A stretch of 24,000 nt of DNA from Candidatus Heimdallarchaeota archaeon (GTDB lineage Archaea; Asgardarchaeota; Heimdallarchaeia; JABLTI01), in NCBI GenBank assembly GCA_018238155.1, contig JABCTZ010000019.1, forward strand, positions 6,832 through 30,831, written 5' to 3'. The position numbers were made by a program, and so were the translations under genes. Under the pieces are notes generated by a model that searched no databases, had not been told where the DNA came from, and was given only the letters and a program-made list of their open reading frames with translations. Of this stretch, positions 2,416-17,707 are shown piece by piece (within the stretch, counting starts at the first letter, position 1; every line of letters begins with the position of its first letter).

Positions 2416-2824
2416 CCATATTCTTTTCTAGAAATAACAACGTGAAAGTACTTTTTAAAGAAATCGTAAGAACAAAATAATTGATAGATGTTCTTTAAAT
2501 ATTACCAATTACAAGTACAACAACCTATATACTATAATCTCCTAAGTCAACCTCAAAATCTCTAAATGTCCTATAATTTTTAATATGAATGTGTTTAATT
2601 CTCACTATTTATATGCCCCAATATTAATCTTCGAAGTTTAAAATAGAATTAATTGTTGTTTATTATGTAAACAAAAATTAGCCCATTTTCCAAATTCATT
2701 ATATCTATACCAACATTGTTTTTAAATATAATTCTGATGAAAAAATAATGAAGAACTCAATTTAATTACTTGGCTTAAGAAAAATAAGACGAAAACAATA
2801 ATATAGCTTTCTTTACCTTCTTCT

Positions 2825-3562
2825 TTACTCAATTTTACAAACATCTGTTAATCTACAATTCCAGCAAGAAGTTTCGATTAATGGAAATTTCTCTTGGGAA
2901 ATCTCGGAGAGTATTCGTTGATAAGATTCTTGAAAAGATAATAACTCATCTACTTTCAATTCAAAGATTCTCTCAATTCCTGATTTGTAATAATAGCAAC
3001 CAATTTCTACTACATTATACAAGAATTCATCATATTCCATATTTTCAGCCCTAAAGTTGTTTAACAAATTTGCATAAAATACCAGTGCTAGCTTATCATT
3101 TTGATGAGGTTCAGATTTATAGTCAATTATTCTTAATCCATCTTTACTCTTGCACAATTCCACACAATCAATTATTCCTCTCTGCCTTTCTGTCATTAAT
3201 CGTGACTCTGTTTGAACAGGTATCCAGTAATCAGAGTCTTCGAAATATTTTCTCTGTTGATACAACCAATAAAGTAATTTTATTTGATTACTAGCAATTT
3301 CTTTTGGTGGTTCTGGTTCAGTTATTCTATTCCGATATTTTTTATGAAACGTTTCAAAGAATGAGTGTTTGATTATTCCATTCAAATTATCTCCACTATA
3401 ATTACGCAGAACATAGCTAGAAGTGCTCCTTTTTGAATTCATGAAAGCCGTCTTGTAGGGTATTGGATTCAATATTCGATGAATGCGGAATTTCTGAAGG
3501 CACTCAAGATAATACAAATATTCCGTTTTGCTTAAATTTATTTCATAATCAAGAACTACCAT
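2825..3562 (-). CDS. Cas4-like PD-(D/E)xK nuclease with 4-Cys (Fe-S type) signature
   Basis: 245 aa. Motifs: N-terminal Cys (YYLEC21LQKF); GIIKHSFFE; RGIID132CVE ... RIID147YK149 (D...DxK); helix LALVFYANLL; C-terminal C233-x2-C236-x5-C242 (nt 2837-2866). This one N-terminal plus three C-terminal Cys arrangement is typical of the Cas4/DUF83/AddB family. ATG start 6 nt after the upstream gene's stop. Confidence 0.65.
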   Translation of the reverse strand: MVVLDYEINLSKTEYLYYLECLQKFRIHRILNPIPYKTAFMNSKRSTSSYVLRNYSGDNLNGIIKHSFFETFHKKYRNRITEPEPPKEIASNQIKLLYWLYQQRKYFEDSDYWIPVQTESRLMTERQRGIIDCVELCKSKDGLRIIDYKSEPHQNDKLALVFYANLLNNFRAENMEYDEFLYNVVEIGCYYYKSGIERIFELKVDELLSFQESYQRILSEISQEKFPLIETSCWNCRLTDVCKIE

Positions 3563-3568
3563 CCTTAT

Positions 3569-4264
3569 TCACCCCTTATGTTTTAAAGAAAAAACCAAAG
3601 AAGGCTCTTCCATAAGTAAACTTTCAATGTTCTTCAGAATTCCTTTTTTCTTCCCTACTTTACTATGCCAATACATCGAAGCTATTTTTTCAGCTAATTG
3701 CTCTATTGATCGTTTATTAGCTGGAAGAATTCTCTTTTTTTCTCCCTCTAATTTCTCTCTCTTTTCCTCATATTTTGCTAATTTAGAATAATAATTTCTT
3801 GTTGCTTTTTTCAGATCTACCAGTGAACTTTTTGGTATTTTTTTCTGATGTTTCAGACAGTGGAATAACCTCAATTCTTGCAATGATATGCGTTCAAATT
3901 TATTGTTGAAAAAATCTTCAAGGGTAAGACAGCAATTCTTTTTGCCAGTAGCATCTCGAGAGTATATTAGTAATCCACTCTCTTCTAATGCATCACAATA
4001 TTTCTTTGTCTGATCCCAAGACCAAGGAAGTGCGGAACGAATTTCATGCAAACTCTTACTAGATAATTCCCCCATCTCAAATAATTCATTTATCCAATTG
4101 ACGAGGAATGCGTGTGTTCGTATGAATCCTTTTTGAGCTATAGTTTTGATTACTAGGCTCAAATTTCGATGATTGTTCTTCTTCACTAGTTTATAATCAT
4201 GTTCTCGTTGTAGACAAGCAACATTCTCATGCAACAATGCTATACAATCTTTCTCAAAAACCAT
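3569..4264 (-). CDS. hypothetical protein, probable winged-helix DNA-binding domain plus Lys/Glu-rich coiled-coil tail
   Basis: 231-aa ORF. wHTH-like stretch LSSKSLHEIRSALPWSWDQTKKYCDALEESGLLIYSRDATGKK. Sits 13 nt downstream of the Cas1-like gene and 6 nt upstream of the Cas4-like gene. Confidence 0.5.
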   Translation of the reverse strand: MVFEKDCIALLHENVACLQREHDYKLVKKNNHRNLSLVIKTIAQKGFIRTHAFLVNWINELFEMGELSSKSLHEIRSALPWSWDQTKKYCDALEESGLLIYSRDATGKKNCCLTLEDFFNNKFERISLQELRLFHCLKHQKKIPKSSLVDLKKATRNYYSKLAKYEEKREKLEGEKKRILPANKRSIEQLAEKIASMYWHSKVGKKKGILKNIESLLMEEPSLVFSLKHKG

Positions 4265-4277
4265 AATCTTACCACCT

Positions 4278-6296
4278 TCAATTTACCTCATCAATCGATA
4301 AAGGCTTAAAAACAAAATTCTCTGAAAAGAACCGTTGAGAGAAAGTTTGTATTTGTTGCCGTTCCTTTTGAGTTAAAACATCTATCCTCTTTGTTTGTTG
4401 TAGCTTCTTCCAAAGAGTGAGTAGTTTGCTATTTGTTGATTGTTCTCTGCCTGTTAATTCTACAGAATGATTTGCCAGTTTATTCACGAGTTCTTTCTGT
4501 TGCTGAAGATAGCTTTCATACGCTCGTTTAAGGTTCGTGTTTTGTCCCGAGGTTAAACTTATTGTTGTATTAAGAGCACGCAAACCGATTTTTCTAATGA
4601 GTGTGTGAACATCTGAGTTGGGTTCAACACAGTAGTACGGGTCATAGCGTTTCCCTCGATTGACTAGAAAGTCGCCAGGACGTATTTCTTCGTTTCGGAT
4701 TGCTTCATGAATCCAGAGTAAAGCAATGATCTTAGCTTGTTCGATAGTATCCAAGTATAAACCGAAGGAATAACCTCGATGACACCAGCCACGAAAACCA
4801 TCCCAAGCAAGAGAAATGACATTATAGATCTCCTTCTTCAAGTATGAAGTAATGATCAAGTTGACACCATTAATAAGAGAATCATAAGCAGAACGAGCAT
4901 AGAAATAGGCAAAGGGAAGGAACCGTTCAAAACGAACCATACGAGAAACGCTACGAGCGGGAGTCAGGAAACCATATTTCTGTGCTTCACGTTTTAATGG
5001 TTCAACCATCAAACTACTAACACCACCTTCATATCTTTGCCACTGCTTGAAATGAAGACTAGGCACACTCCAATAATTGCGAATAGTGTCTTTCATGTTG
5101 TCTAATGCATCGATAAAATAGATTTTCAGGTCAGCATCAACAAATTTTCGTATCTTCGTTTCAATAAGCGTTACTCGTGTTCGAAGGTTTGCTTGAAAAG
5201 TAGGGATATTGAGAATACTGCTAGCAATAAGGAGCTCATTACCACCAACCTCTTTATCCTGTGGTTCGACACTTTCGATAGTATCAATTGGGGAATAGAG
5301 TCTGATTTTATAGTAGAGTTTGAGACCTGTTGCAGGATCAATCTTGTGGAGTAGATTCTCAAGATAATGATAATCATCCCAGTGCTTTGCATAAATATAT
5401 TTTAACTTTCGAAGAGGAAAATAAGTCAGATCAGCAGAATGGACCAGCTCTTCTGTAGTGGTTTTACTGCCAATAAATAAGTTCTCTTCTTTAGTACGAA
5501 GAGTAAAACTGCCAGGTTTAATGATAGAAATACCATACCAATATTTTTCTAGAGAGTCGAGACTATCCTTATTTTGAGGTGGAAGTGTTTCGCCAGTAAG
5601 ATCATGAAAGCTCTTCTGGAGAATGTCAAAATGACTGTCCCAATAGTACACACGATAATCATCAAAGTGCTCATCATATCCAAATTCCATAGGCGAACCA
5701 CAGTGAGGACAGTAAAAAGTAGTAGAACCAATTCTGATGTTCTGCAAATAAAAACTAAATGCACCAATAACTTGCTTGCAACGGTCAATCGGACAACGAA
5801 AGAATTCACCATCTCTATTCTCTCGAATAAAACGAGCCATCGTTCTACTCTTCAGTTGTCCAGGCACTCGACAGTTAAAGAATTCGCATTTGGGAGCATC
5901 ACGAGGAACTGCTTGAAGAGCTACCCGGAGTTTCAAATGAGCAGCCATAAGCGAAGGATTGCTCTTGAAAGCAAGGTCTAATAATGTGCACCTTTGGATA
6001 GCAGATAACCACTGACAAGCACCACAATTAGATCGGTCATCAGTTGGAGCTTCATCTTCTTGAGGTTGTCCTTCTGAACTATAATATAACCGAACAGATC
6101 GTTCAAGGGATTGCTTGTCAGTATAATACTGAATATTTCCTTGGACAGCAAGGGTACGTAATACTTGACAGATTTGTGAATGGCTCCTGTTTAAATTAAT
6201 AGCAAGATCCTTACTTGAAACAGCTTGTGTGGGATCTACGCGGTCATGCACCAAAGATGCAACTAAAGAGCGAAGATCATTTCTACCTGTTCTCAT
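4278..6296 (-). CDS. multidomain protein: wHTH + Cys-rich (Zn-ribbon-like) region + Cas1-like integrase core
   Basis: Numbering follows the 694-aa track ORF.
- wHTH, about aa 45-85: SSKDLAINLNRSHSQICQVLRTLAVQGNIQYY.
- Cys pairs: C113xxC116, C159x4C164, C190x4C195, C218xxC221.
- The C-terminal half matches the Cas1 pattern: RYE445GG...REAQKYGF, then ARSAYDSLINGVNLIITSYL, then GFRGWCH528RGYSFGLYLD538TIE541.
- The H+10 Asp and H+13 acidic spacing is the same as E. coli Cas1 H208/D218/D221 (recalled from memory).
The start is uncertain. ATG at 6296 overlaps the upstream stop by 14 nt. The track start is TTG 6362 / ATG 6359, which would add a hydrophobic 22-aa leader. Confidence 0.65.
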   Translation of the reverse strand: MRTGRNDLRSLVASLVHDRVDPTQAVSSKDLAINLNRSHSQICQVLRTLAVQGNIQYYTDKQSLERSVRLYYSSEGQPQEDEAPTDDRSNCGACQWLSAIQRCTLLDLAFKSNPSLMAAHLKLRVALQAVPRDAPKCEFFNCRVPGQLKSRTMARFIRENRDGEFFRCPIDRCKQVIGAFSFYLQNIRIGSTTFYCPHCGSPMEFGYDEHFDDYRVYYWDSHFDILQKSFHDLTGETLPPQNKDSLDSLEKYWYGISIIKPGSFTLRTKEENLFIGSKTTTEELVHSADLTYFPLRKLKYIYAKHWDDYHYLENLLHKIDPATGLKLYYKIRLYSPIDTIESVEPQDKEVGGNELLIASSILNIPTFQANLRTRVTLIETKIRKFVDADLKIYFIDALDNMKDTIRNYWSVPSLHFKQWQRYEGGVSSLMVEPLKREAQKYGFLTPARSVSRMVRFERFLPFAYFYARSAYDSLINGVNLIITSYLKKEIYNVISLAWDGFRGWCHRGYSFGLYLDTIEQAKIIALLWIHEAIRNEEIRPGDFLVNRGKRYDPYYCVEPNSDVHTLIRKIGLRALNTTISLTSGQNTNLKRAYESYLQQQKELVNKLANHSVELTGREQSTNSKLLTLWKKLQQTKRIDVLTQKERQQIQTFSQRFFSENFVFKPLSIDEVN

Positions 6297-7074
6297 GTAA
6301 CCTCTTCTCCAGTATAAAATCATCAACCATAAGACTATGGGGACCGATAGAAGATTCATCAAGCCAAGGAGGAAGCTCCTGGTAATCGGTAAAGACTGAG
6401 AGAATAATCTCTATCAATTCTTTATCATTCAAATCGTTAGCTCGAGTAATTTCCACTTGATTGATCCGAGAAACAACCTCTTCAGAGAATAGTTGTAAGG
6501 AATTATCATCATAATCATCCGATTCTTCTCTCTTCGAATCCTTCGCATAAGCAATCGTTCGTTTAATCTTTTTGACCCACTCAAACCATTCCTGATACTC
6601 AGCAATTGATTTATCAACGGTTCGTTCCTTCAGTTGAAGGAAGGTCAGAAATTTAGGAACATTCTCAGCAGAAGGAAGAAAACCGAAGGAATGATCGTCA
6701 CTACAACCATCTTCACTATCCAACTTATTAGCTAACCAAGCATTAAAACCGAAAAAACGAAACAAAGCACTAGAAAGAAAAGGATGGTCAAGCTGAAGAT
6801 CAACAACACGACGACGACCTGAACGATAATACGTAATAAGACCAAGATTTGCCAGTGACTTGAGACTAGAACCAATAGCATTAGGGGATCGGTCTAGAAA
6901 CCGACAAAGAAAACCAACAATATTGACAAACTTGCATGTGAAATTCAAGATAAACAATAACTGAAGTGTAAGCAAAACTTCCTCCATAACAGGAGTGAAT
7001 TTAACATTCATATTCAACTCAGCAAAACGATACTCGTCTACCTCTGTTAAGACAAGATTATTCTGAAACTTCAT
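6283..7074 (-). CDS. hypothetical wHTH (MarR-like) protein with acidic C-terminal half
   Basis: wHTH-like IVGFLCRFLDRSPNAIGSSLKSLANLGLITYYRSGRRRVV. ATG at 7074 is preceded by GGAGA 8 nt upstream. The track's longer version starts at TTG 7155. The stop overlaps the start of the Cas1-like gene. Confidence 0.5.
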   Translation of the reverse strand: MKFQNNLVLTEVDEYRFAELNMNVKFTPVMEEVLLTLQLLFILNFTCKFVNIVGFLCRFLDRSPNAIGSSLKSLANLGLITYYRSGRRRVVDLQLDHPFLSSALFRFFGFNAWLANKLDSEDGCSDDHSFGFLPSAENVPKFLTFLQLKERTVDKSIAEYQEWFEWVKKIKRTIAYAKDSKREESDDYDDNSLQLFSEEVVSRINQVEITRANDLNDKELIEIILSVFTDYQELPPWLDESSIGPHSLMVDDFILEKRLHENR

Positions 7075-7156
7075 AAGATTTTTCTCCAACAGAACTCTCC
7101 GACAAAATTGCTTATAAACCTCTAACTCACAAAAAATACCAGAATGCCTTCCCAAT

Positions 7157-7230
7157 ACTCACAAATAATTCAGAAAACCAATGCACTTCTAGGTAAATTT
7201 ACGCAAATTTCCTTCACTCACAAAAAATTC
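7157..7230. repeat. two copies of a 15-nt direct repeat upstream of the wHTH/Cas1-like operon
   Basis: actcacaaataattc (7157-7171) and actcacaaaaaattc (7216-7230). They match at 14 of 15 positions and lie 59 nt apart, in the operon's 5' flank. Confidence 0.3.
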
Positions 7231-7404
7231 TGTAAACTCCTTTAGTCCGCGCTATTCTTACTTCTAAGAATGCCAATTTTCCTCTTCTTATCCCTTCTCA
7301 TGACTAAATAAACCCCTCTTGTACATTAGCGAAAGTTAAACTCTATTCCTATTAACAAAGTACTCAAAGAAGAAAAAAATTGTTGAAATTTAAATTTGCT
7401 TTTT

Positions 7405-7527
7405 TCAAGATTCCAATTCATTCATTCGTTTCTCAAATGCATCAAGTCTTCTCCAAACTTCTTTTATTTGTTCATCAAGCTTTTGCTCTAGTTTGTCAAT
7501 TCTTTTGTTTACGTACATGCTACTCAT
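7405..7527 (-). CDS. possible 40-aa coiled-coil micro-protein
   Basis: Hand translation: MSSMYVNKRIDKLEQKLDEQIKEVWRRLDAFEKRMNELES*. ATG is preceded by GGAAGAGGA. Below the track's size cutoff. No family evidence. Confidence 0.25.
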   Translation of the reverse strand: MSSMYVNKRIDKLEQKLDEQIKEVWRRLDAFEKRMNELES

Positions 7528-7688: not shown

Positions 7689-9263
7689 TTAATGATTTTC
7701 TTGTTTTACTAGGTTACTAAAAGTTTTTAAAAAATACCTTACAACTCCATTCCTAATTAGATTTTTTTCTATTTCTGTTCCAAAATGTTCTTCAATTTGA
7801 GAAAGCAATTTCTTATCATCTGAATCAATTCGAATATAACTTTCATAAAAAATCATTTTTTTTGCAAAGTATTTTAGTTGGGCATTTGGTCTCAAATCAA
7901 GGAAAACTGGTGCTGCTCTAAACCTTCTATATTGTATTCGACGTCCATGATAAAGTAAAAATTCCATCAAAGATTTTTTCTCCTCTGATAAAATTTTTTC
8001 AAGTACTTTTATTGATACTGCACTTTTTCCTGCTTCTATATATTGAACAGACTTAGTACTAATCCCTAGTTTCTGTGCAAACTCAAATTGTGTTGTTTTT
8101 TTTCTATATCCCTTTAGTAATTGTCCTAATCCAACTATTTGTAAATCTGATATTAAACTAAAATCAAAATAGCCGTTTGGTATAGTGTCTTTCTTGAAAT
8201 CTTGAAATTGATAAGAAATTTTGCTTTTTATCTCTCTTCCTTCTTTTAACTTTAAGAATTGCACCCTCTTTTCAGGATGACAACTGTACATTTCACTCTT
8301 GTATATTTGATTATACTTTCTAGGAATGTATATTTGAAATGTATTGTCTGGTCTTTCAGTTAATCTTGACTTGATAGATAATGATACTAAGAATCTAGTG
8401 AACTCATTTACATAAAATTTACTTGCACTTGTGAATGTAATACTGCCACTAGCATAGCTCCCATCAGCATCCATTACACCAGACCAATAATGTGAACGAA
8501 ATGGTTGTTCTTGGAAAAGTAACGGCTCACGTAATTTTTGATATTTCCTTCCACCAATAGGTTGATTTGTAAGAAAAGAAAATAATCGTGCTACCCAGAG
8601 ATTGGTAATAATGAGTTTCGGGCAATTCTCAGTTTGAAGTTGAATTCTCCCTGTTTGCTTGAATAATCGTTCGAACTGTTCCTTTAACTGTCGAATGTTT
8701 TCAATGGAATAATCAACAATATTGAGAACATATTTAGTGATATTCCCATCACCATTGACCATACCACAAAGATAAGCAAGCTCAGTAGTTAAGCTAGTAG
8801 GCATCGCAAAGGTTTCACCTCGAGAGGATTCAAGTATTCGTTCATGGAAATTAAGTTCAAAGTGATCCGGAAAGCAACGATAGAAGGGCAGGGGAACAGC
8901 ACCTCGCTCGAGATACTTTCGAAGGATATCACGCCATTCGAGGATCTTACGATTATCAGATCGGTAAAAATAATCACGCAATTTTTCAGCGACAAGAAGG
9001 TCTTGATTACTTACAAGTTCCTTTTCCTCCTCAGTAAGCTGAACATAGGGTAAACGAGCAAGGATACGGTCAGAATGTTTTTCCCGGACAAAATCCGCCC
9101 TGCGAACAAGGATAGGAAAAAGGTTGAGAATATTGGTACCTTCAAGAATGATTTCTTTTCCTCGATTGCTTTCTAGTAACTCATTGGCGTTTATCCACTG
9201 ATTGACCGGCTTAACCTCTGCATCAAAATAGATCGAATCATTAAGCCAATTGAGCACTGCCAA
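7689..9263 (-). CDS. free-standing double-motif LAGLIDADG endonuclease-like protein fused to a C-terminal XRE-type HTH
   Basis: 524 aa.
- Motif 1: LAYLCGMVNGDGN (nt 8742-8780).
- Motif 2: HYWSGVMDADGSY (nt 8454-8492).
- XRE-like HTH: LGQLLKGYRKKTTQFEFAQKLGISTKSVQYIEAGKSAVSIKVLEKIL (nt about 7992-8138).
- The N-terminal 160 aa are unassigned.
TTG start; there is no in-frame ATG before the domains. Confidence 0.75.
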   Translation of the reverse strand: MAVLNWLNDSIYFDAEVKPVNQWINANELLESNRGKEIILEGTNILNLFPILVRRADFVREKHSDRILARLPYVQLTEEEKELVSNQDLLVAEKLRDYFYRSDNRKILEWRDILRKYLERGAVPLPFYRCFPDHFELNFHERILESSRGETFAMPTSLTTELAYLCGMVNGDGNITKYVLNIVDYSIENIRQLKEQFERLFKQTGRIQLQTENCPKLIITNLWVARLFSFLTNQPIGGRKYQKLREPLLFQEQPFRSHYWSGVMDADGSYASGSITFTSASKFYVNEFTRFLVSLSIKSRLTERPDNTFQIYIPRKYNQIYKSEMYSCHPEKRVQFLKLKEGREIKSKISYQFQDFKKDTIPNGYFDFSLISDLQIVGLGQLLKGYRKKTTQFEFAQKLGISTKSVQYIEAGKSAVSIKVLEKILSEEKKSLMEFLLYHGRRIQYRRFRAAPVFLDLRPNAQLKYFAKKMIFYESYIRIDSDDKKLLSQIEEHFGTEIEKNLIRNGVVRYFLKTFSNLVKQENH

Positions 9264-9341: not shown

Positions 9342-9656
9342 CTATTTCTTTATTATTTTACGCTCTCTATAATTTGATTCAGCAGTAAAATTCTCATCAT
9401 CAGGATAGTATGAAGTTCTTACCCAAATAATCTTAGTTTTAAAATCAGGTTCACATGGAATATGTACAAATCGACTATTTTCTAATTCCCCCCACAACAA
9501 GTACCGTCCATCTTTTGTATCCTCAATAACATCCCATTGTCGAACAATTTCTTCTATTTCATCTGGTGGTATACTTCGCTCTCTCCAACGAAGCTCTCCA
9601 TGTCCTCTCTGAAAGCGAATAATAAATTCTTTGTTTTTTTCTTTAAAGTGGTTCAT
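9342..9656 (-). CDS. DUF4258-like small protein (putative toxin-type)
   Basis: 104 aa. The sequence GHGELRWRERSIPPDEIEEIV...GRYLLWGE...IIWVRTSYYP fits the DUF4258 pattern: H...R.I, a helix, and a beta-rich C-terminus ending in V.T.Y. Confidence 0.55.
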   Translation of the reverse strand: MNHFKEKNKEFIIRFQRGHGELRWRERSIPPDEIEEIVRQWDVIEDTKDGRYLLWGELENSRFVHIPCEPDFKTKIIWVRTSYYPDDENFTAESNYRERKIIKK

Positions 9657-9700
9657 GGAACTAGAGGGGGAAATATATAAATCTTGTGCATCTATACACT

Positions 9701-9710
9701 ACACATGTGT
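9701..9710. promoter_or_regulatory. perfect 10-bp palindrome in a divergent intergenic region (candidate operator)
   Basis: ACACATGTGT is its own reverse complement. It lies between divergent starts at 9656 (-) and 9784 (+). A TATA-like aaatatataaat lies at 9671-9682. Confidence 0.2.
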
Positions 9711-9783
9711 TTATCCTCTGGATCTATTATTTGCTGAAATAGTGTTTCCATTTCCTAAATCTCATTTATTGAATAACTGAACC

Positions 9784-10539
9784 GTGAGAAAAATGAAACA
9801 AAGTAATCCCTATTCTAAAGAAGAGAAATTTAGAGAACTAATAAAAGAAGCTTACAGAAAAGTCTTCATCACGGAAAAACAAAAAACCGCACTTTTAGCA
9901 AAATATAATCGAAAGTATGATGGAGACGCTCTGTCCATGCAAGATAGAAATGCTCTGCGAATGCTAAGAAAAACTATAATACAGTATCGAACTTCTGTGT
10001 CTGAGTCTGCAATAGCTGCTCTAAAATTTGAAAGTGTTCTTGAATTACTTTCACTTGTGGATAAAAGCTCTGGTATTTATTGTCATGTTTGTAAAGTGGG
10101 AATATTAGTATCACGAACCGTGAGTTCTTGGATTGTGGGTAAGGATTATGAATTAATTTTAGAACAGAAACCTGCGAAAGTATGTAGTAACAATACTTGT
10201 AAAAGTACTTCATTTAGCTTAGCAGTAGAGAAATATGAGGATGAGCTAATCAATGAAGTTGAAAAGCAATTACGATCGATTAGAATTACAAACACCGAAA
10301 AATTAGATCAAAAGAAATGTCCGCAGTGCCGTTCAGAAACGTTAGAAGCAAACCATACTGGTGATGTATACAAATATCATCAGGGATTATATCATATCAA
10401 GATCAGGGATGTTCCACTAAAAGCATATTGCAACATTTGTCACTATCAAGAAGTAGGAGAAAATATAATAATAGAATTGGAAAAATTAGAAACCCTCTTA
10501 GATACTGAAACACTCGAATTGTTGAAATTGGATGGCTAA
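9784..10539 (+). CDS. protein with helical N-terminus and two tandem YgiT/MqsA-type zinc-finger modules
   Basis: 251 aa.
- Module 1: C90HVC93 ... C134SNNTC139.
- Module 2: C179PQC182 ... YKYHQGLYHIKIRDVPLKAYC216NIC219.
Each has a CxxC, then a beta-hairpin, then a second Cys pair, as in the MqsA N-terminal domain. GTG start in the track; ATG 3 codons later. Confidence 0.55.
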   Translation: MRKMKQSNPYSKEEKFRELIKEAYRKVFITEKQKTALLAKYNRKYDGDALSMQDRNALRMLRKTIIQYRTSVSESAIAALKFESVLELLSLVDKSSGIYCHVCKVGILVSRTVSSWIVGKDYELILEQKPAKVCSNNTCKSTSFSLAVEKYEDELINEVEKQLRSIRITNTEKLDQKKCPQCRSETLEANHTGDVYKYHQGLYHIKIRDVPLKAYCNICHYQEVGENIIIELEKLETLLDTETLELLKLDG

Positions 10540-10589: not shown

Positions 10590-10766
10590 CTATTTTGTCA
10601 ACTCAAAAACTATCTTCTTTGACCCATCAAGATAACACAACACTTCTTCTCCAGGTTCAATATTGAGTGCCTCAACTAATTCTAATGGAATGCTGACCCG
10701 ATGTGTTCCAGAACTGAAAATTATTTTTCTCTTAAAGATAATTTTAGGATCTTTTTCTTCATCCAT
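10590..10766 (-). CDS. AbrB/SpoVT (MazE-like) domain protein, 58 aa
   Basis: Hand translation: MDEEKDPKIIFKRKIIFSSGTHRVSIPLELVEALNIEPGEEVLCYLDGSKKIVFELTK*. The core (R.SIP.E...LNI.PGEEV) is a typical looped-hinge-helix motif. Missing from the ORF track because it is under 60 aa. Divergent from the RAMP operon. Confidence 0.6.
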   Translation of the reverse strand: MDEEKDPKIIFKRKIIFSSGTHRVSIPLELVEALNIEPGEEVLCYLDGSKKIVFELTK

Positions 10767-10890: not shown

Positions 10891-11658
10891 ATGAATGTCT
10901 CTCGAAACTTTAAGCGAATAAAAATAACCGCAAAAACAGCAATAGCAAAACCCGGGAACGGGCAAATTGGGGGAGGAAATACCAAGAACTTATTACTAGT
11001 TCATAACGGACGAGGGTATGGGCGAGAAGGAAAGAGATACCTAGTGAAGGGATTAAGAGGATTGCTAAATCATTCAATGATGGAGCTTGCAAAACAAAAA
11101 GGAATAGAAGTATGTCACTCATCGGACAAAAAAGAAACACAAACAGGAGAAAAATTGCTACCAGACGCATTTCATCCAAACGGCTCGTGCTATCCAGAAG
11201 AGGAGTGCATAAGACACAGATTAATGGGTTCAATGAAAAAACAATCAGTGCTGCGATTTGAACCAGTAGTGATAGTATCGGATAATATAACAGGGGAGTT
11301 CGAAGACGCACAGAAAATACACATAGCAACGGACAAAAGAAATGCGCTAGTGCAAGGAACAAAAAGAAGCATACAAGATTTCGGAGAAAGATACATAGCA
11401 GGAGAATTTACCTATTCGATAGAATTATTGAAAGAAATCTCTCTAGAAGAAATGGGATTCTTACTGAAAAGTATTCTCTACATGCCAGAATTGCGGTGGG
11501 GTGCATCAGGAAATAATGGAGCGGGAAAATTAGAATTAGAAGAAGTAAATCTACAAGAAGTAATGCGCACAAGAACTGTCAAGAAAGGAAAAGTGTCCGA
11601 AAAAGAAAATGAAAAAAATCTTTGGAAACAAATGGAGGAGGGACTTAAAGCTTGGTAA
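10891..11658 (+). CDS. RAMP superfamily protein, Cas7 (Csm3/Cmr4)-like
   Basis: 255 aa.
- YLVKGLRGLLNHS (nt 11038-11067), compare the IPGSSLKGxLR motif.
- CIRHRLMGS (nt 11206-11232), compare C.vC.lFG.
- IHIATDKRNALVQGT...ERYIAGEFTYSIELL, compare the idr.tg.a ... E.i..G..F block.
- Gly-rich loop WGASGNNGAGKLEL (nt 11497-11529). Confidence 0.65.
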   Translation: MNVSRNFKRIKITAKTAIAKPGNGQIGGGNTKNLLLVHNGRGYGREGKRYLVKGLRGLLNHSMMELAKQKGIEVCHSSDKKETQTGEKLLPDAFHPNGSCYPEEECIRHRLMGSMKKQSVLRFEPVVIVSDNITGEFEDAQKIHIATDKRNALVQGTKRSIQDFGERYIAGEFTYSIELLKEISLEEMGFLLKSILYMPELRWGASGNNGAGKLELEEVNLQEVMRTRTVKKGKVSEKENEKNLWKQMEEGLKAW

Positions 11659-12635
11659 TAAGGGAAATATATACACTAGAAGGAGAATTGCTGTCACCAA
11701 TTATTGTTTCTTCATCATTGATAAAGAAAGGAAGAATTTGGATTAGAATAGTAAGGGAGTTAGGAACTGAAGAAAAACCACAAAAGAGCTTCACTGCGAA
11801 ACTAATAAAGGGGGAACGAAAAGCACCAGACCATGTGAACGCATACAGAGGATTTGTGAGAATAACTACAGTTGATTCAAACACATCTCGAGCGAAGAAA
11901 AACATTGATCTCTATCTTAACAAAGATTTCCTTGGAAGACGTGTAAACGAAGGATTTGGAAAAGTCAAGTGGTTGAATTATAAAATAGAAAATTACGTAA
12001 GAAATGCAACTGAAAAAAAACAAAAGAAATTCAGAATACGAAAAGGACTAGGACCAAATTATCCAAAAGAATTGCAAAGATTGCTTAGAGCTCTAATGTT
12101 ACATGATTTTGTGGAAACAGAAAAACATCCAAGTAAGATATTCAAAGAAATTTCAATTAAGGATGAGGAAATAAGAGAAGCTTGCTTAAAACATCATAAT
12201 GTAGGATACTGCAAGAATATACTACTCCCACTGGTCAGGTATTATGACCATTTAGCTGCATACATGAACAGAAAAAGCGTACACATAAGAAACTGCAGAT
12301 ATGATTATGAGAATGGAAAAATAGATTTTGAAAAATTAGCTAATGACATAGAAGAAAGACAACAATCTGCCTATAAATTATATAATTTCATCTATTACTC
12401 AAAAGAATTAAGTAGAACAGTGGAAGCAATGAAATTTGGAAAAACATCTCTGCGAGATCATTTGTTGTTAATGGCTAATCTAGCTATACATGGCTACTGC
12501 AATAGGTGGTTAATAATGGAAAATGGAAAAATTGAACTCGAAAAGAAAATCTCATCATCGGTAACAAGAAAGGATGAACTTGAATGTGCTAAAGATGTTG
12601 AGATGCATCTGTTATCTAGTATGAGCAATGCTTAA
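11652..12635 (+). CDS. two-part protein: short RAMP-like N-terminus with Gly-rich loop, plus a helical C-terminus with possible HD-type motifs
   Basis: 327 aa. TTG start overlaps the upstream stop by 7 nt, and there is no in-frame ATG for 148 codons.
- FLGRRVNEGFGKVKW (nt 11928-11972) resembles the terminal G-rich loop of Cas5/Cas6-type RAMPs.
- ALMLHDFVETEKH (HD at nt 12102-12107), KHHN and RYYDHLAAYMNRK (nt 12240-12275) loosely resemble Cas10/Cas3-type HD motifs.
The functional call is weak. Confidence 0.4.
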   Translation: MVIREIYTLEGELLSPIIVSSSLIKKGRIWIRIVRELGTEEKPQKSFTAKLIKGERKAPDHVNAYRGFVRITTVDSNTSRAKKNIDLYLNKDFLGRRVNEGFGKVKWLNYKIENYVRNATEKKQKKFRIRKGLGPNYPKELQRLLRALMLHDFVETEKHPSKIFKEISIKDEEIREACLKHHNVGYCKNILLPLVRYYDHLAAYMNRKSVHIRNCRYDYENGKIDFEKLANDIEERQQSAYKLYNFIYYSKELSRTVEAMKFGKTSLRDHLLLMANLAIHGYCNRWLIMENGKIELEKKISSSVTRKDELECAKDVEMHLLSSMSNA

Positions 12636-12941: not shown

Positions 12942-14258
12942 TTAAAATATCTTAATTTCTACTATGTGTTCTATTGGATATTTATCTGTGTAGTTTCCCG
13001 GGTCGATAATATATTCTACTCCTGGGAACCATACTAATTCTGACCAGTAATTCCCTTGATCGGTTTCTTCATCAAACCATTTTGTAAATCCTACAAAATC
13101 AGAACAATTACCTTCTACCCTTGCTTGTGAGTGGATTTCTGTGATGTTATTATAGTTATTGTCTATGAAATTATTATTCCATATTGTTGCATTTACTGCT
13201 TCCGTTTCTATTCCGTATTGTTCATTGTGCTCTAATATGTTGAAATTGATAGCTGTAATATTTGAACATCGTAAAGACATTCCTATAGTATTATCAAAGC
13301 AACTATTATTTGTTATAGTACAGAGATCATTCATTAACATTGCAATACCATATTCTCTATTAGATTTGAAAGCATTGCTTTGACAACAGCTGTTTTTGCT
13401 TCTAACCATCAACAACCCAAAATTGCTTCCCGTACAATTGTTTCCAATTATTGTACAGTTGTTTGAATAATATACACCTATCCCCCGAAAAGAATTATTA
13501 GTTATATTATTGTTTAGTAACCTAATATTTACGCAATCCAAAATACCGATACCATAGTTCCCATTTTCTATGGTATTATTTTCCACAATTACATTTGAAG
13601 CTGTAAGAATGTCGATATCCTCTGAACCAGTATTTGTGAAATAATTATTCTGAACAGTTACATTATCTACCTGACTTAAGGTTATTCCGTAATCACAACT
13701 TTGGAAAATATTTCCTTCTACTCTCGAATTATTACTCATATATAATTCAACCCCTCCATCATTATAATTTCTGTAAAATCTATTGCTTGTAATATTTACA
13801 GTTCCAAAACGTACCTCAATTCCTTGCCGGTAATTTCTATCGAAAGAATTATTTGTAATTAGGCATTTCTCGAGATAACTGATAGAGATTCCAATATCTC
13901 CTCCAATTAAATTATTTTTAATAACTATAGTTCCATCTGCAGTGATATTTGATAGTTTTATTCCACATGACAGCCTACAATTTTGAATGATAAAATGCTT
14001 TGTTACTCCACTAATTTTGATACCATATAGGACTCCTTGCAAGGTATATCCCTCTATAATGTATGGTTCTTCCTTTGTGCCTTTCCCTGGAAAGTTATAT
14101 TTCCAGTAGAAATCTGAATCTCTCTTAATCTCTATTATCTCGATATCTTTTCTTAGATTAATCCATCTACCCAAGAAAATTCCTGAAATTGTTACAGAAC
14201 AAACTAATACAACAATTAGAATTACTTTTACTGATTTTTTTAAGTCTCTGAATCCCAC
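12942..14258 (-). CDS. membrane-anchored right-handed parallel beta-helix (PbH1/NosD-like) surface protein, paralog 1
   Basis: 438 aa with a GTG start. Has an N-terminal TM anchor and FPGKGTKEEPYIIEGY (typical PbH1 entry). Repeated N-rich, roughly 22-aa turns (NNxIxxNxxGI). About 16 N-x-S/T sequons by my count. Conserved tail IDPGNYTDKYPIE. Confidence 0.8.
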   Translation of the reverse strand: MGFRDLKKSVKVILIVVLVCSVTISGIFLGRWINLRKDIEIIEIKRDSDFYWKYNFPGKGTKEEPYIIEGYTLQGVLYGIKISGVTKHFIIQNCRLSCGIKLSNITADGTIVIKNNLIGGDIGISISYLEKCLITNNSFDRNYRQGIEVRFGTVNITSNRFYRNYNDGGVELYMSNNSRVEGNIFQSCDYGITLSQVDNVTVQNNYFTNTGSEDIDILTASNVIVENNTIENGNYGIGILDCVNIRLLNNNITNNSFRGIGVYYSNNCTIIGNNCTGSNFGLLMVRSKNSCCQSNAFKSNREYGIAMLMNDLCTITNNSCFDNTIGMSLRCSNITAINFNILEHNEQYGIETEAVNATIWNNNFIDNNYNNITEIHSQARVEGNCSDFVGFTKWFDEETDQGNYWSELVWFPGVEYIIDPGNYTDKYPIEHIVEIKIF

Positions 14259-14507
14259 TCTGAATTCCTCTTCGATTGTTTGGTAATTGTAGTATTTATA
14301 CCTTTCAGTTTTGAAAAATAATGATTGTATAAATCATTTGACATATTTCTTTATGAAAACAGTTTTCTTTACATTATATTTTGATCATTACTATTTTGAT
14401 TTAAGAAATCTTCTTATTTTTGTAATCGATTGTTTATGTACCTTTTTTCGGGGGGATGATAATTTGAATAAAAGGTTTTCACTGTTTTTTGTTTTCTTTT
14501 TCTTGCT

Positions 14508-15821
14508 TTATATTTTGATTGTCACTGGTTCTTCTAGGGGATAGTTATCTGTGTAATTTCCTGGATCGATAATATATTCCATTCCTGAGAACCATACTAT
14601 ATCCGACCAGTAATTCCCTTGATCGTTTTCTTCATCAAACCATTGTGGGTATCCAACATAATCAGTACAGTTTCCCGCTACTTTAGCTTGTGCTTGTATT
14701 GATGGTATGTTATTGTAGTTATTATCTATAAAATTATTATTCCAGATAGTTGTGTTTACTCCTTGTGTCACCATTCCATATTCCAAATTATGTTCGAATA
14801 CATTGAAGCTAATTCTTGGTATCCTTGAACAATATAGTTCCATCCCAAGTGTATTGTTATAGTATGAATTATTATTTATCTCTGTAGAGTAACTTAACCA
14901 AACATAAAGTCCACTAACATTATTCGAAATAAGATTATTGTTGGAAAAGAGGCTATCTGAAATTCCATAAGCAGAAATTCCGTAATAAACATTTTTAGAA
15001 CAATTATTTTCCTTAATTAAGCCATTGTTTGTGTAACTAATTAATAACCCAGAACCATTCTCTGTTAAATTATTTCCCACAATATTGACATTTTGACTAT
15101 AAACAATAGCAACACCTAAACCACAATTTATTACTGTGTTATTATCAAATTGGATATTCTTTATATATTGCATTTGTGCACCCCATCTTGTACAGTTTAT
15201 GAGATAATTTTTCTCTATAGATATTAGTTCAGAATCCAAAATTGTAAATCCATCTTCGCAAGAATCGAAGGTATTTTTCTTTATGCTTGTATTATAATTA
15301 TCTAGTACATGTATTCCATCTCCTTGATTTTTGAGAAAAGTATTTGAAGTAATTTCCAAGCTACCAGTAGATGTTGCTTCTATTCCTCTGCCATTTTTGA
15401 AGAATTTATTACCACTTATTAGGCAATTGCTACTTATTCTTATAATAACCCCATAGTCATTACTTTGTATAGTATTGTTTACTATTTTTGCAATACCATT
15501 TGATAATCCTCTTAAATCAATACCCTTATTGGAGTTTCGTAAAACACAATTTTGAATGACAAAATGTTTTGTTATATCATAGATTTTGATATTGTGAAAC
15601 CTATTACCAGATAATTCATAGCCATCAATAATAAACGGATCTTCTTCTGTTCCTTTTCCAGGAAAGTGATATTTTCGAGAAAAATCCTTATCCTCATATA
15701 TTTCTATCACATTTATTGGTCGAAACCATACACCTAAGAAAATTGCAGTTCCAGTTATTGTTACAACTAATCCAATTATTACTATTGTAAGAACTTTGTT
15801 GTTTATTTTCTTCAATTCCAA
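14508..15821 (-). CDS. membrane-anchored parallel beta-helix surface protein, paralog 2
   Basis: 437 aa with a TTG start. Same architecture as paralog 1. Tail: QGNYWSDIVWFSGMEYIIDPGNYTDNYPLEEPVTIKI. Confidence 0.8.
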   Translation of the reverse strand: MELKKINNKVLTIVIIGLVVTITGTAIFLGVWFRPINVIEIYEDKDFSRKYHFPGKGTEEDPFIIDGYELSGNRFHNIKIYDITKHFVIQNCVLRNSNKGIDLRGLSNGIAKIVNNTIQSNDYGVIIRISSNCLISGNKFFKNGRGIEATSTGSLEITSNTFLKNQGDGIHVLDNYNTSIKKNTFDSCEDGFTILDSELISIEKNYLINCTRWGAQMQYIKNIQFDNNTVINCGLGVAIVYSQNVNIVGNNLTENGSGLLISYTNNGLIKENNCSKNVYYGISAYGISDSLFSNNNLISNNVSGLYVWLSYSTEINNNSYYNNTLGMELYCSRIPRISFNVFEHNLEYGMVTQGVNTTIWNNNFIDNNYNNIPSIQAQAKVAGNCTDYVGYPQWFDEENDQGNYWSDIVWFSGMEYIIDPGNYTDNYPLEEPVTIKI

Positions 15822-16360
15822 TTTCTCACCATTTTGTTATATGTAGCACTATAAATACCATTTCAGATTTTACATTGAGTAATTCTAATGTTTTTTTTGT
15901 TTCTTATAGGTTAAGTGAATTTCTGTAAATTCTCTCTACATTTCTAGGATTTGTTTTAAGATGCCTTTTTCCTTTCTTTTCCAACTGAATTTTCTTAATC
16001 ATTAATTCATTCTAGTCTTAGTGAAAGGGAAATTTGAGTGCCTGCTAGAAAATATTATATTAAGCAATTAATTACTCACATTAAAGATTTTTCTTTTGAC
16101 AGTGATCTTGATTCAATATTTGCTACTTCTCGTGCTCTTTAATCCTTAGAGCGGTATAGAGAGGACATTCCTGAGTTGCTTTCTCTTTCAATGAAGCTTT
16201 TGAAGGATTTTTATCTCCAAGAGAATGAAATTACTTTTCCAGTCAATCTTAGAATGACTGATGAAAGATAAATAGCTATTTCTGAAGTTTACTGGAATGC
16301 TCTCCATGCCATACATTTTCACGATTGATCTGTTCCCTCTCATATTGCTTTTTTCTTGCT

Positions 16361-17707
16361 TTAGAGATTGATTGTCACTGGTTCTTCTAGTGGGTAGCTA
16401 TCAGTATAATTTCCTGGGTCGATAGTATACTCCACTCCTGTATACCATACTAACTCCGACCAGTAATTTCCCCTTCCCATTACTTCATTATGCCACTTTG
16501 TGTGTTCTTCATAATATGTTCCATCAAATGAGCAATTTCCATTACTTCTTGCTTGTGAATGTATTGTTGTAATGTTGATGTAATTATTGTCTATGAAATT
16601 ATTATTATAAATGGTAGTATTTACTCCTTGAGTTACTATACCATATTCTAAATTGCGTTGAATAATATTACAATTAATTTGAGTAATATTTGAACAAAAT
16701 AATTCCATTCCTAGACCATTATCAACAAAGCTATTATTGTTTATTGAAGAGATATCACTTGCCCACATTGATATTCCACTTTTATTATTTCCATTAAAGA
16801 AATTGTTACAACAATTACTATTGGTTAACCAATATATCCTGATACCAAAATCACTATTTCCTGATCCATTATTTCCCGTAATTAAGCATTTGTTTATGGT
16901 TTCTAAATAAAAACCGTTACCTCTATTGTCCACTGAAGTATTATTTACTAAGTCTATATTTTGACTTTGACATATTCCGAATCCTAAACTACAATTTGTT
17001 GCTGAATTATTACCTATAATTATATTCATTACTTCTTCTGCATAAAATCCTAATATGCAGTTTGTAAAATTGTTTCTTTTTGTTAGAATATTTTCCGAAC
17101 GATAAATTACTAATCCACTATTAAAAGAGTCAAAGGTATTGTCTTCTATTCTTGTATTATTGTTATCCGAAAAATTCATCCCTTCAATCCAAGCAATGTG
17201 GTCATACTTGTTATTGATAAGGATATTTGATTGTATTGTATAACTACCTGTTCCCGCTTCTATTGCTTGATGGTTATTGATGAAAGTGTTATTACTGATG
17301 ATACAATTATTATATCCTCTAATAATAATTCCAAAATCATTATCTCTTATAGTGTTGCTTAGTATTTGTGCAACTCCATAAGTTAAGTTAACTAAATCCA
17401 TACCTTTGCTGGATTTTTCCAAAATACAATTTTGAATGATGAAGTATTTTGTTATGCCTACAATTCTGATGTTATGATGAGAATTTCCTGATAACTCGTA
17501 ACCGTCAATAATATAGGGGTCATCCTCTGTTCCACTGCCTGGAAAATGATATTTTTGTGAGAAGTCCTTATCATCAAAAATTTCTATTTGTTCTATTGTT
17601 CTAAACCGCCAGCCAAAGAAAATCGCTGTCCCAATTGTTGACACGACTATCGCTATGATTATTACTGCTTGAACTTCACTACTTAGTTTTCTAAATCTCA
17701 CTTTCAA
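16361..17707 (-). CDS. membrane-anchored parallel beta-helix surface protein, paralog 3
   Basis: 448 aa with a TTG start. Same architecture as paralogs 1 and 2. Tail: RGNYWSELVWYTGVEYTIDPGNYTDSYPLEEPVTINL. Confidence 0.8.
   Translation of the reverse strand: MKVRFRKLSSEVQAVIIIAIVVSTIGTAIFFGWRFRTIEQIEIFDDKDFSQKYHFPGSGTEDDPYIIDGYELSGNSHHNIRIVGITKYFIIQNCILEKSSKGMDLVNLTYGVAQILSNTIRDNDFGIIIRGYNNCIISNNTFINNHQAIEAGTGSYTIQSNILINNKYDHIAWIEGMNFSDNNNTRIEDNTFDSFNSGLVIYRSENILTKRNNFTNCILGFYAEEVMNIIIGNNSATNCSLGFGICQSQNIDLVNNTSVDNRGNGFYLETINKCLITGNNGSGNSDFGIRIYWLTNSNCCNNFFNGNNKSGISMWASDISSINNNSFVDNGLGMELFCSNITQINCNIIQRNLEYGIVTQGVNTTIYNNNFIDNNYINITTIHSQARSNGNCSFDGTYYEEHTKWHNEVMGRGNYWSELVWYTGVEYTIDPGNYTDSYPLEEPVTINL

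Follow-up and report, generated by a model that had tools for sequence, protein, structure and literature searches.

Cas1 writes the memory of CRISPR systems and moves casposons. To our knowledge, Cas1 homologs are nowhere more diverse than in the Asgard archaea, and none of these has been characterized. Here, we describe a gene for a large and very diverged Cas1 relative, referred to as aCas1, on a stretch of 24,000 nucleotides (nt) from Candidatus Heimdallarchaeota archaeon (assembly GCA_018238155.1, contig JABCTZ010000019.1, positions 6,832 to 30,831). This stretch, the window in what follows, is AT-rich (GC content, ~33%), and coordinates refer to it unless another locus is named. Diverged Asgard Cas1 proteins in array-less cas-like loci have already been described by computation, and the published summaries mention no member that was studied experimentally.

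Relation to described Cas1 systems

As summarized from Makarova et al. 2020 (PMC8730458, PMC12669027), ARAMPs are Asgard array-less derivatives of type III CRISPR systems related to HRAMP, and their loci combine distinct forms of Cas4, Cas5, and Cas7 with a very diverged Asgard Cas1 ("aCas1"); a PD-(D/E)xK or HNH nuclease counts as a further mark of the type. In addition, aCas1 has been proposed as the transposase of TnpB-linked elements, Cas1H-Asgard-1 and -2 (Altae-Tran et al. 2023, PMC10691335). The architecture of the protein, which a first-pass annotation of the window had taken to be undescribed, therefore has precedents, at least at the level of very diverged Asgard Cas1 homologs in array-less loci (PMC8730458, PMC12669027, PMC10691335, as far as these sources describe them). 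In our reading, to which we give a probability of roughly 0.7, aCas1 is the core of a four-gene operon within a larger array-less, CRISPR-derived module of Heimdallarchaeota and Gerdarchaeota, of the type "ARAMP with distinct Cas1."

With ARAMP/aCas1 loci, as summarized, the module shares the Asgard host, the extreme divergence of Cas1, the lack of an array, a diverged Cas7-like RAMP neighbor, and a PD-(D/E)xK (Cas4-like) nuclease; like the module here, the published loci are known, by the same summaries, from computation alone. It differs in that roughly every second informative locus lacks the RAMP pair, so that the Cas1 operon also occurs without it. The candidate for the Cas5-like second RAMP of ARAMPs would be a 327-aa protein that shows motifs by eye and no significant match. 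The proposed aCas1-TnpB transposons resemble the module in having an Asgard Cas1 variant and a meganuclease-like companion (LAGLIDADG plus helix-turn-helix [HTH]), and a TnpB gene abuts the module in L005, L007, and L023 and a 1383-aa relative in L012; however, the window has no TnpB, and no flanking repeats were found around the module.

A casposase (6opm) is the best match of aCas1 in the PDB both by structure and by sequence, and it is likewise a Cas1 fold with extra DNA-binding domains. Casposases also work without Cas2 or a CRISPR array. In contrast to casposons, the module shows neither terminal inverted repeats nor target-site duplications and no element-borne PolB, and the identity between the proteins is ~12 to 14%. 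Moreover, the extra domains are N-terminal in aCas1 (winged HTH [wHTH] and Zn), whereas the casposase has a C-terminal HTH, and aCas1 has constant partners: a Cas4-like nuclease, two small proteins of DNA-binding type, and a LAGLIDADG protein. The Cas4-Cas1-Cas2 modules of types I-B, I-C, and others (7mi4, 8d3p) have the Cas1 fold, the catalytic residues, and a Cas4-family nuclease in the same operon in common with the locus, but Cas2 and the array are absent here, aCas1 is twice the usual size, with wHTH and Zn modules, and cas4 models match its nuclease only weakly.

Cas1 homology and active site

The open reading frame (ORF) of 694 aa at 4278-6362 on the minus strand exists as reported in the first-pass annotation, and its translation agrees. 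All 11 family members in the full-length alignment (A1) begin at the equivalent of M23, and therefore, the true start is most likely ATG 6296, giving a protein of 672 aa, and not TTG 6362; from ATG 6296, the gene starts 14 nt inside the 3' end of its upstream neighbor. The listed start of the upstream gene, TTG 7155, is also too far upstream, and alignment of its homologs points to ATG 7053. With these two starts, the repeats of the operon leader (see below) fall outside of the coding sequence. Residue numbers follow the 694-aa frame. The protein is divided as follows.

4278-6296, minus strand: aCas1 gene, probable coding sequence of 672 aa (wHTH, Cys-rich putative Zn region, Cas1 N-terminal beta domain, Cas1 alpha-helical catalytic domain, C-terminal extension)
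6078-6284, minus strand: wHTH, aa ~27-95 (weak PDB matches of profile A1; Foldseek)
5700-6026, minus strand: Cys-rich region, aa 113-221, with conserved C113, C116, C125, C159, C190, C195, C218, and C221
5283-5549, minus strand: beta-rich domain, aa ~272-360, equivalent to the Cas1 N-terminal domain (modeled strands at 276-325; span of the Foldseek matches)
4563-5258, minus strand: Cas1-like alpha-helical catalytic domain, aa ~369-600 (profile A2, hhalign, and model)
aa 601-694, minus strand: conserved C-terminal extension with no assigned fold (11-member alignment)

Two independent lines of evidence, a predicted structure and profile comparisons, show that the ORF encodes a real, if extremely diverged, Cas1 relative. 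An AlphaFold2 (AF2) model was built from the 11-sequence alignment and compared with the PDB by Foldseek. Ranks 1 to 30 were all Cas1 or casposase chains (E = 1.9e-7 to 8e-3), including casposase 6opm (E = 1.9e-7), Archaeoglobus fulgidus Cas1 4n06 (E = 4e-7), and the type I-C Cas4-Cas1-Cas2 complex 8d3p (E = 4.6e-7), and the ranks after these were wHTH proteins only. The target-normalized TM score was ~0.45 to 0.55 over ~380 columns, and in all, ~370 to 440 columns were aligned with Cas1 chains of 310 to 360 residues, so that both Cas1 domains are covered; by this comparison, the model has the two-domain Cas1 fold, an N-terminal beta domain followed by a C-terminal alpha-helical domain.

On the sequence side, the family profile of 11 sequences (A1) found wHTH regulators only in the PDB and no Cas1, and the link to Cas1 emerged only once the profile was widened with distant relatives. 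When 1.84 billion representative proteins were searched exhaustively by profile, 52 relatives came up, among them proteins of 800 to 1400 aa that have the catalytic region in common. Four of these large proteins (P0030, P0033, P0035, and P0038) match almost all of the wHTH-Zn-Cas1 architecture in their C-terminal halves, and two small distant relatives (P0049 and P0059) score 17 to 22 bits against Pfam Cas_Cas1, the cutoff of which is 22.3. From 28 diverse superfamily members, we derived a catalytic-core profile (A2); it had five matches in the PDB at E < 10, and all five were Cas1 or casposase, as exemplified by 6opm_A (E = 1.7e-5), 7cr6_A (E = 1.3e-3), and 4xtk_A (E = 6e-3). Standard profile libraries miss the whole family, so its members stay "hypothetical" in public annotation.

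The A2 alignments with PDB chains, together with an hhalign comparison of A2 with E. coli Cas1 (taken from NC_000913), pair the putative active-site residues as follows.

E445 (codon 5028-5030, minus strand): E141 of E. coli Cas1
N498 (codon 4869-4871, minus strand): N177
H528 (codon 4779-4781, minus strand): H208
D538 (codon 4749-4751, minus strand): D218
E541 (codon 4740-4742, minus strand): D221

Forty-two superfamily members, with identities down to about 18%, were compared at these positions. R470 (4953-4955), R474 (4941-4943), N498, G525, H528, and D538 are conserved in all 42; at position 445, 38 members have E and the other 4 have D, and at position 541, 29 have E and 13 have D. Conservation of this degree exceeds chance. 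Within the 11 family members, N28, the eight Cys, E445, N498, H528, and D538 are invariant or nearly so, and E541 is E or D. aCas1 is therefore predicted, from its alignment with characterized Cas1, to act as a DNA transesterase of the Cas1 fold in which the metal-binding E-H-D/E active site is intact.

The first-pass annotation had arrived at the same four residues, E445, H528, D538, and E541, by eye, and both a significant match to Cas1, by fold and by profile, and conservation of these residues were found here. Its motif placement is correct (RYE445GG from aa 443, SLIN498GVN from aa 495, WCH528RG from aa 526, and YLD538TIE541 from aa 536), as are its codon coordinates for the four residues and the E. 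coli residues that it had given (E141, N177, H208, D218, and D221; sequence rederived from NC_000913). Of the spacing from N to H, it gave counts of 31 and 32, which have to be corrected to 30 here and 31 in E. coli; the difference of one residue holds. Its additional N-terminal wHTH and Cys-rich modules are borne out by the fold and profile searches: A1 weakly matches regulators of the ArsR/MarR/Lrs14 type in the PDB (E = 0.007 to 0.07), and Foldseek also finds SmtB and other wHTH chains. Eight conserved Cys are indeed present, but they do not make up the "four Cys pairs" described earlier, since the only close pairs are C113/C116, C190/C195, and C218/C221. The Cys columns are invariant or near-invariant in A1, weak Pfam matches to Zn ribbons lie at aa 207-227, and the region probably forms two Zn-binding modules.

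A side product of the profile search was P0031, a protein of 3922 aa in which nine tandem stretches, spaced by ~260 residues, match the aCas1 profile at positions 291-361, the part that directly precedes the catalytic domain. P0031 may be a repeat protein that is unrelated apart from one small domain.

A conserved four-gene operon

The gene had been called a Cas1-solo, a term that does not fit: it always shares an operon of four genes with a Cas4-like nuclease, the operon is adjoined by a LAGLIDADG-HTH gene, and in the window a Cas7-like RAMP pair is nearby. We compared ~20 loci in all, namely, the window, contigs from an exact-protein look-up, 7 loci of GTDB species genomes, and 13 metagenome loci; the hosts are metagenome-assembled genomes (MAGs) of Heimdallarchaeota or Gerdarchaeota. 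The gene order is constant, with a SmtB-like wHTH protein of ~255 aa, aCas1, a helical protein of ~231 aa, and a Cas4-like PD-(D/E)xK nuclease of ~250 aa, and the operon and its LAGLIDADG neighbor are kept in every informative locus at aCas1 identities of 35 to 94%. Neighboring genes of the operon overlap or are spaced by 6 to 14 nt, which indicates co-translation. The partners of aCas1 and the region upstream of them are as follows.

7054-7323, minus strand: conserved noncoding leader with a box, direct repeats, and a TATA-like element
6283-7053, minus strand: operon gene 1, SmtB/ArsR-type wHTH protein of ~256 aa (start at ATG 7053 by alignment A4)
3569-4264, minus strand: operon gene 3, mostly helical protein of 231 aa with a possible wHTH (low-confidence AF2 model)
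2825-3562, minus strand: operon gene 4, Cas4-like PD-(D/E)xK nuclease (Pfam PDDEXK_1, E = 3e-9; alignment A7)

By profile, the first protein matches SmtB in the PDB (E = 1e-3) and, weakly, ArsR/SmtB in NCBIfam. Relatives of the 231-aa protein occur only within these modules, and its sequence had no match in the PDB. We considered it as an analog of Cas2 and rejected this, as there was no sequence match and the all-helical model (pLDDT, 55) gave only insignificant matches of wHTH type and none like Cas2. The Cas4-like protein has the conserved Cys C21 and C233-x2-C236-x5-C242, and its nuclease motifs GxIDC and IDYK are intact; cas4 models of NCBIfam and PADLOC match it weakly (E = 0.002 to 0.007). 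Downstream of its gene lies a stub of 26 codons (2522-2605, minus strand; VRIKHIHIKNYRTFRDFEVDLGDYSI up to the stop), which resembles the N terminus of AAA/OLD/RecF-type ATPases and which may be a gene remnant.

About 270 nt upstream of the first operon gene are conserved in all loci. This leader begins with a box (TACAAGAGGGGT, 7301-7323), present once per locus with 0 chance matches expected; on the left, the similarity of paralogous copies ends exactly at this box. Direct repeats (GAATTTTTTGTGAGT) follow at 7216-7230, 7157-7171, and 7125-7139, and after them a TATA-like element (TTTATAAG); related loci have the same layout with two to four repeat copies, ~30 or 60 nt apart. Judged from this layout, the leader is probably a promoter with operator sites, and we infer that the repeats form an operator array for a wHTH protein. 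We also considered the repeats as a proto-array or mini CRISPR and discarded this idea: the segments between the repeats are homologous between related loci, one locus is merely without one unit, and a spacing of ~30 nt fits operators. A hairpin after the leader box was likewise dismissed; it folds in most loci, and one stem is seemingly compensatory between groups, yet it is not kept in the closest relative, L004. Between the leader and the LAGLIDADG gene, there is an ORF of 40 aa with coiled-coil character (MSSMYVNKRIDKLEQKLDEQIKEVWRRLDAFEKRMNELES, 7405-7527, minus strand).

The LAGLIDADG gene and the RAMP pair

Besides the operon, the module holds the LAGLIDADG-HTH gene and, in many loci including the window, a divergent set of a MazE gene and a Cas7-like RAMP pair. 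In the window, these are as follows.

7689-9263, minus strand: LAGLIDADG-HTH protein, 524 aa (Pfam LAGLIDADG_3 and HTH_3)
10608-10736, minus strand: MazE-like small ORF or remnant (tblastn with MazE of L015, 35% identity over 43 aa, E = 4e-5)
10891-11658, plus strand, divergent from the module: Cas7/Csm3-like RAMP, 255 aa (Pfam RAMPs, E = 6e-4; PADLOC Csm3, E = 3e-5)
11652-12635, plus strand: RAMP partner, 327 aa, constant downstream neighbor of the RAMP by synteny

Wherever this region is visible (12 of 12 loci), the LAGLIDADG-HTH gene stands upstream of the operon, and an acidic residue is kept in both LAGLIDADG motifs (MVNGDG and MDADG, read from the translation). Homologs also adjoin a distant aCas1 relative of 1383 aa (L012, 35% identity) and lie in the RAMP locus L015 (38%). 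The RAMP assignment is supported by the family profile, which matches Cas7 (E = 3e-4) and Csm3 (E = 1e-3) in the PDB, and the 327-aa partner has, by eye, a G-rich motif (GFGKVKW) and a pattern that resembles HD (LHDFVH...H...HH...D), with no significant match to a family. The RAMP pair lies, together with a MazE-like gene, beyond the LAGLIDADG gene in the window, L004, L008, and L025, and a MazE gene is at the same position in L004, L008, L015, and L001. In L005, L007, and L023, a TnpB gene takes the place of this set.

The RAMP family extends beyond that of aCas1, and the pair is widespread in Heimdall-group MAGs. The family comprises 52 clusters at 54 to 91% identity, apart from three remoter matches; all but one of the named clusters come from Asgard MAGs, and the RAMP also occurs alone (L016). 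In L015 (6832-11787), the RAMP pair, MazE, LAGLIDADG-HTH (38% identity), and the Cas4-like nuclease (32%) stand between SRP54 and Rpb7/Spt4 with no aCas1 operon, in what looks like a Cas1-less version of the module.

Several points weigh against our reading. A search of Pfam with aCas1 gave no match to Cas_Cas1 (PF01867), even at E ≤ 1, and no Cas1 match came from NCBIfam and PADLOC at E ≤ 0.1; the core profile does reach Cas1 and casposase chains of the PDB. The AF2 model is moderate (pLDDT, 69.6) and falls below 50 at the Cys region (aa 194-222) and at aa 522-535; the latter stretch is the poorly modeled His loop, on which the predicted clustering of E445, H528, D538, and E541 in three dimensions depends. 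In L005, L007, L010, and L023, no RAMP pair lies within 10 kb, which makes the link to ARAMPs facultative. Furthermore, the module fits the published ARAMP/aCas1 kind by comparison with published summaries and not family by family, and the activity, partners, and targets of aCas1 are all inferred.

These same gaps, that is, the lack of a direct match in Pfam, NCBIfam, or PADLOC and the low pLDDT at the His loop, could mean that the resemblance to Cas1 is an artifact of the model, and the three wHTH-type proteins of the operon and the operator-like repeats upstream suggest regulation, so that aCas1 might also be a catalytically dead DNA-binding regulator with a Cas1 fold. We regard either possibility as extremely improbable. 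Independent evidence from sequence comparison alone (profile A2 and hhalign) reaches Cas1, and the catalytic positions are invariant or conservatively replaced in 42 very divergent relatives; a Cas1 homolog that had lost its activity would be unlikely to retain its catalytic residues.

CRISPR arrays and Cas2

As noted in the first-pass annotation, neither a CRISPR array nor Cas2 is present in the window, according to model scans and repeat searches. No array was found within 10 kb of the module in the window or in any of the ~20 family loci by TRF, a repeat finder, Rfam, and a k-mer array scan, and no ORF of the window matched a Cas2 model of Pfam, NCBIfam, or PADLOC; small ORFs were inspected as well. 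The window nonetheless has cas-like genes, those of the Cas4-like nuclease (2825-3562) and the Cas7/Csm3-like RAMP (10891-11658). A genuine array is present in L012 (11890-12173), with a 37-nt repeat (GTTTCAATCCTTATTTTATTGGATGTTAGTCTTCAAC), 37-nt spacers, and a degenerate first unit; the contig ends inside it. It lies ~250 nt downstream of a set of genes for MazE, TnpB, LAGLIDADG-HTH, the 1383-aa Cas1-like protein, and a DEAD/MZB helicase.

The proximity of this bona fide array to a distant relative of aCas1 would suit an unusual adaptation integrase that serves a distant array in trans, with prespacers processed by the Cas4-like nuclease and the 231-aa protein in the place of Cas2. Linkage of Cas4 and Cas1 is typical of adaptation modules, and the nearest PDB matches include Cas4-Cas1-Cas2 complexes. 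However, the lack of an array near any of the loci and of Cas2 in the window, together with the lack of effector genes other than the array-less RAMP pair, makes such a role very unlikely, and in L012 the degenerate first unit suggests that the trailer end of the array, not the leader end, faces the Cas1-like gene.

Mobility of the module

Could the module be a mobile element, with aCas1 as its transposase or integrase? Such an element would be casposase-like in function and non-self-replicating, and the LAGLIDADG protein and the Cas4-like nuclease would aid excision or target cleavage. Several observations are in line with this. The best PDB match of aCas1 is a casposase, and a transposase role was proposed for aCas1 by Altae-Tran et al. 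(PMC10691335). The core-gene neighborhood of the module differs between genomes, with PolB and PPAT in the window, RNA polymerase in L001, and PCNA and GINS in L002; in L006, the module is beside the same PolB neighborhood as in the window but inverted, and PolB is syntenic with PPAT there regardless of the orientation of the module.

One MAG (12F4_9) has two copies of the operon (L007, 9036-13470, and L008, 9037-13477), which are 84% identical at the nucleotide level over a sharply bounded 4.4 kb. Both are damaged: in L008, frameshifts break up the wHTH gene and the aCas1 gene into two ORFs each, and in L007, the Cas4-like gene is truncated; in L008, four additional small genes also separate the LAGLIDADG gene from the operon. 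The two copies could, however, reflect a mixed bin, and there are just one or two copies per genome.

TnpB (IS605 OrfB) abuts the module in three loci, where it sits directly upstream of the LAGLIDADG gene in divergent orientation (L005, 6048-7241; L007, 5744-7240; and L023, 5121-6566), and it abuts the distant relative in L012. TnpBs next to different loci are only 23 to 41% identical to each other, and those of L005, L007, and L023 only ~25%; the nucleotide similarity between these three loci stops at the TnpB 5' ends. Because they diverge and lie outside of the block of similarity, the sequence comparison suggests that TnpBs inserted repeatedly and independently at the same spot.

The features of an element itself did not come to light, and we consider mobility unlikely. 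No terminal inverted repeats bracket the module (seed-and-extend search of seven loci and general repeat searches), neither end of any locus carries an inverted copy of the leader box or the repeats, target-site duplications were not identified, and nucleotide similarity between copies stops exactly at gene ends. A 21-nt pair with 95% complementarity (3582-3602 and 9627-9647) was rejected as element ends, as it is within coding sequence and of low complexity. There was no relative in 2.9 million viral contigs (IMG/VR), BFVD gave generic wHTH matches only, and no plasmid-like carriers were found. A casposon, which the label "casposase-like" in the first-pass annotation had implied, is also not supported by the polymerase: the sole PolB of the window (18965-21727) is a chromosomal, replicative one (archaeal PolB equivalog, 1047 bits), 12 kb from aCas1, and an archaeal PPAT is encoded in the window as well (both by NCBIfam).

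Predicted function

We lean toward a biological role in a defense island or as a CRISPR derivative rather than in mobility. In our model of the operon, the Cas4-like nuclease would trim DNA ends to give substrates with a 3'-OH, and a dimer of aCas1 would use these ends for strand transfer into a DNA target. The choice of substrate and target would come from the wHTH and Zn modules of aCas1 and from the two accessory DNA-binding proteins and not from Cas2 and a CRISPR repeat, and the direct repeats of the leader would serve as operators for one of the wHTH proteins.

More tentatively, one may imagine that the wHTH protein, aCas1, the 231-aa protein, and the Cas4-like nuclease make up a self-contained integration machine that needs neither Cas2 nor an array, has its choice of target set by the wHTH and Zn modules of aCas1 and by its partners, and is possibly coupled to the LAGLIDADG nuclease. 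If so, a third functional branch of Cas1 would join those of CRISPR adaptation and casposon transposition; this would have a bearing on the recruitment of Cas1 to immunity and might offer a programmable or site-specific integrase. In any case, the conserved operon, the predicted intact active site, the constant partners, and the candidate operators make the locus a defined experimental target, with the information at hand for testing how a Cas1 functions without Cas2 and without an array.

Other genes near the module

Between the LAGLIDADG gene and the MazE and RAMP genes, the window has a pair of genes that resembles a toxin-antitoxin system (9342-10539), one for a DUF4258 protein (104 aa, minus strand) and one for a 251-aa protein with a zinc-finger C terminus of the YokU/YgiT type (plus strand); the pair is also present in L004. 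Genes of the kind found in variable or defense regions flank the module in the various loci, among them the DUF4258/YokU toxin-antitoxin-like pair and genes for MazE, TnpB, and a NERD-NACHT protein. Beyond the RAMP pair, three tandem paralogs on the minus strand (12942-17707; 438, 437, and 448 aa; 43 to 51% mutual identity) encode right-handed beta-helix proteins of the NosD type.

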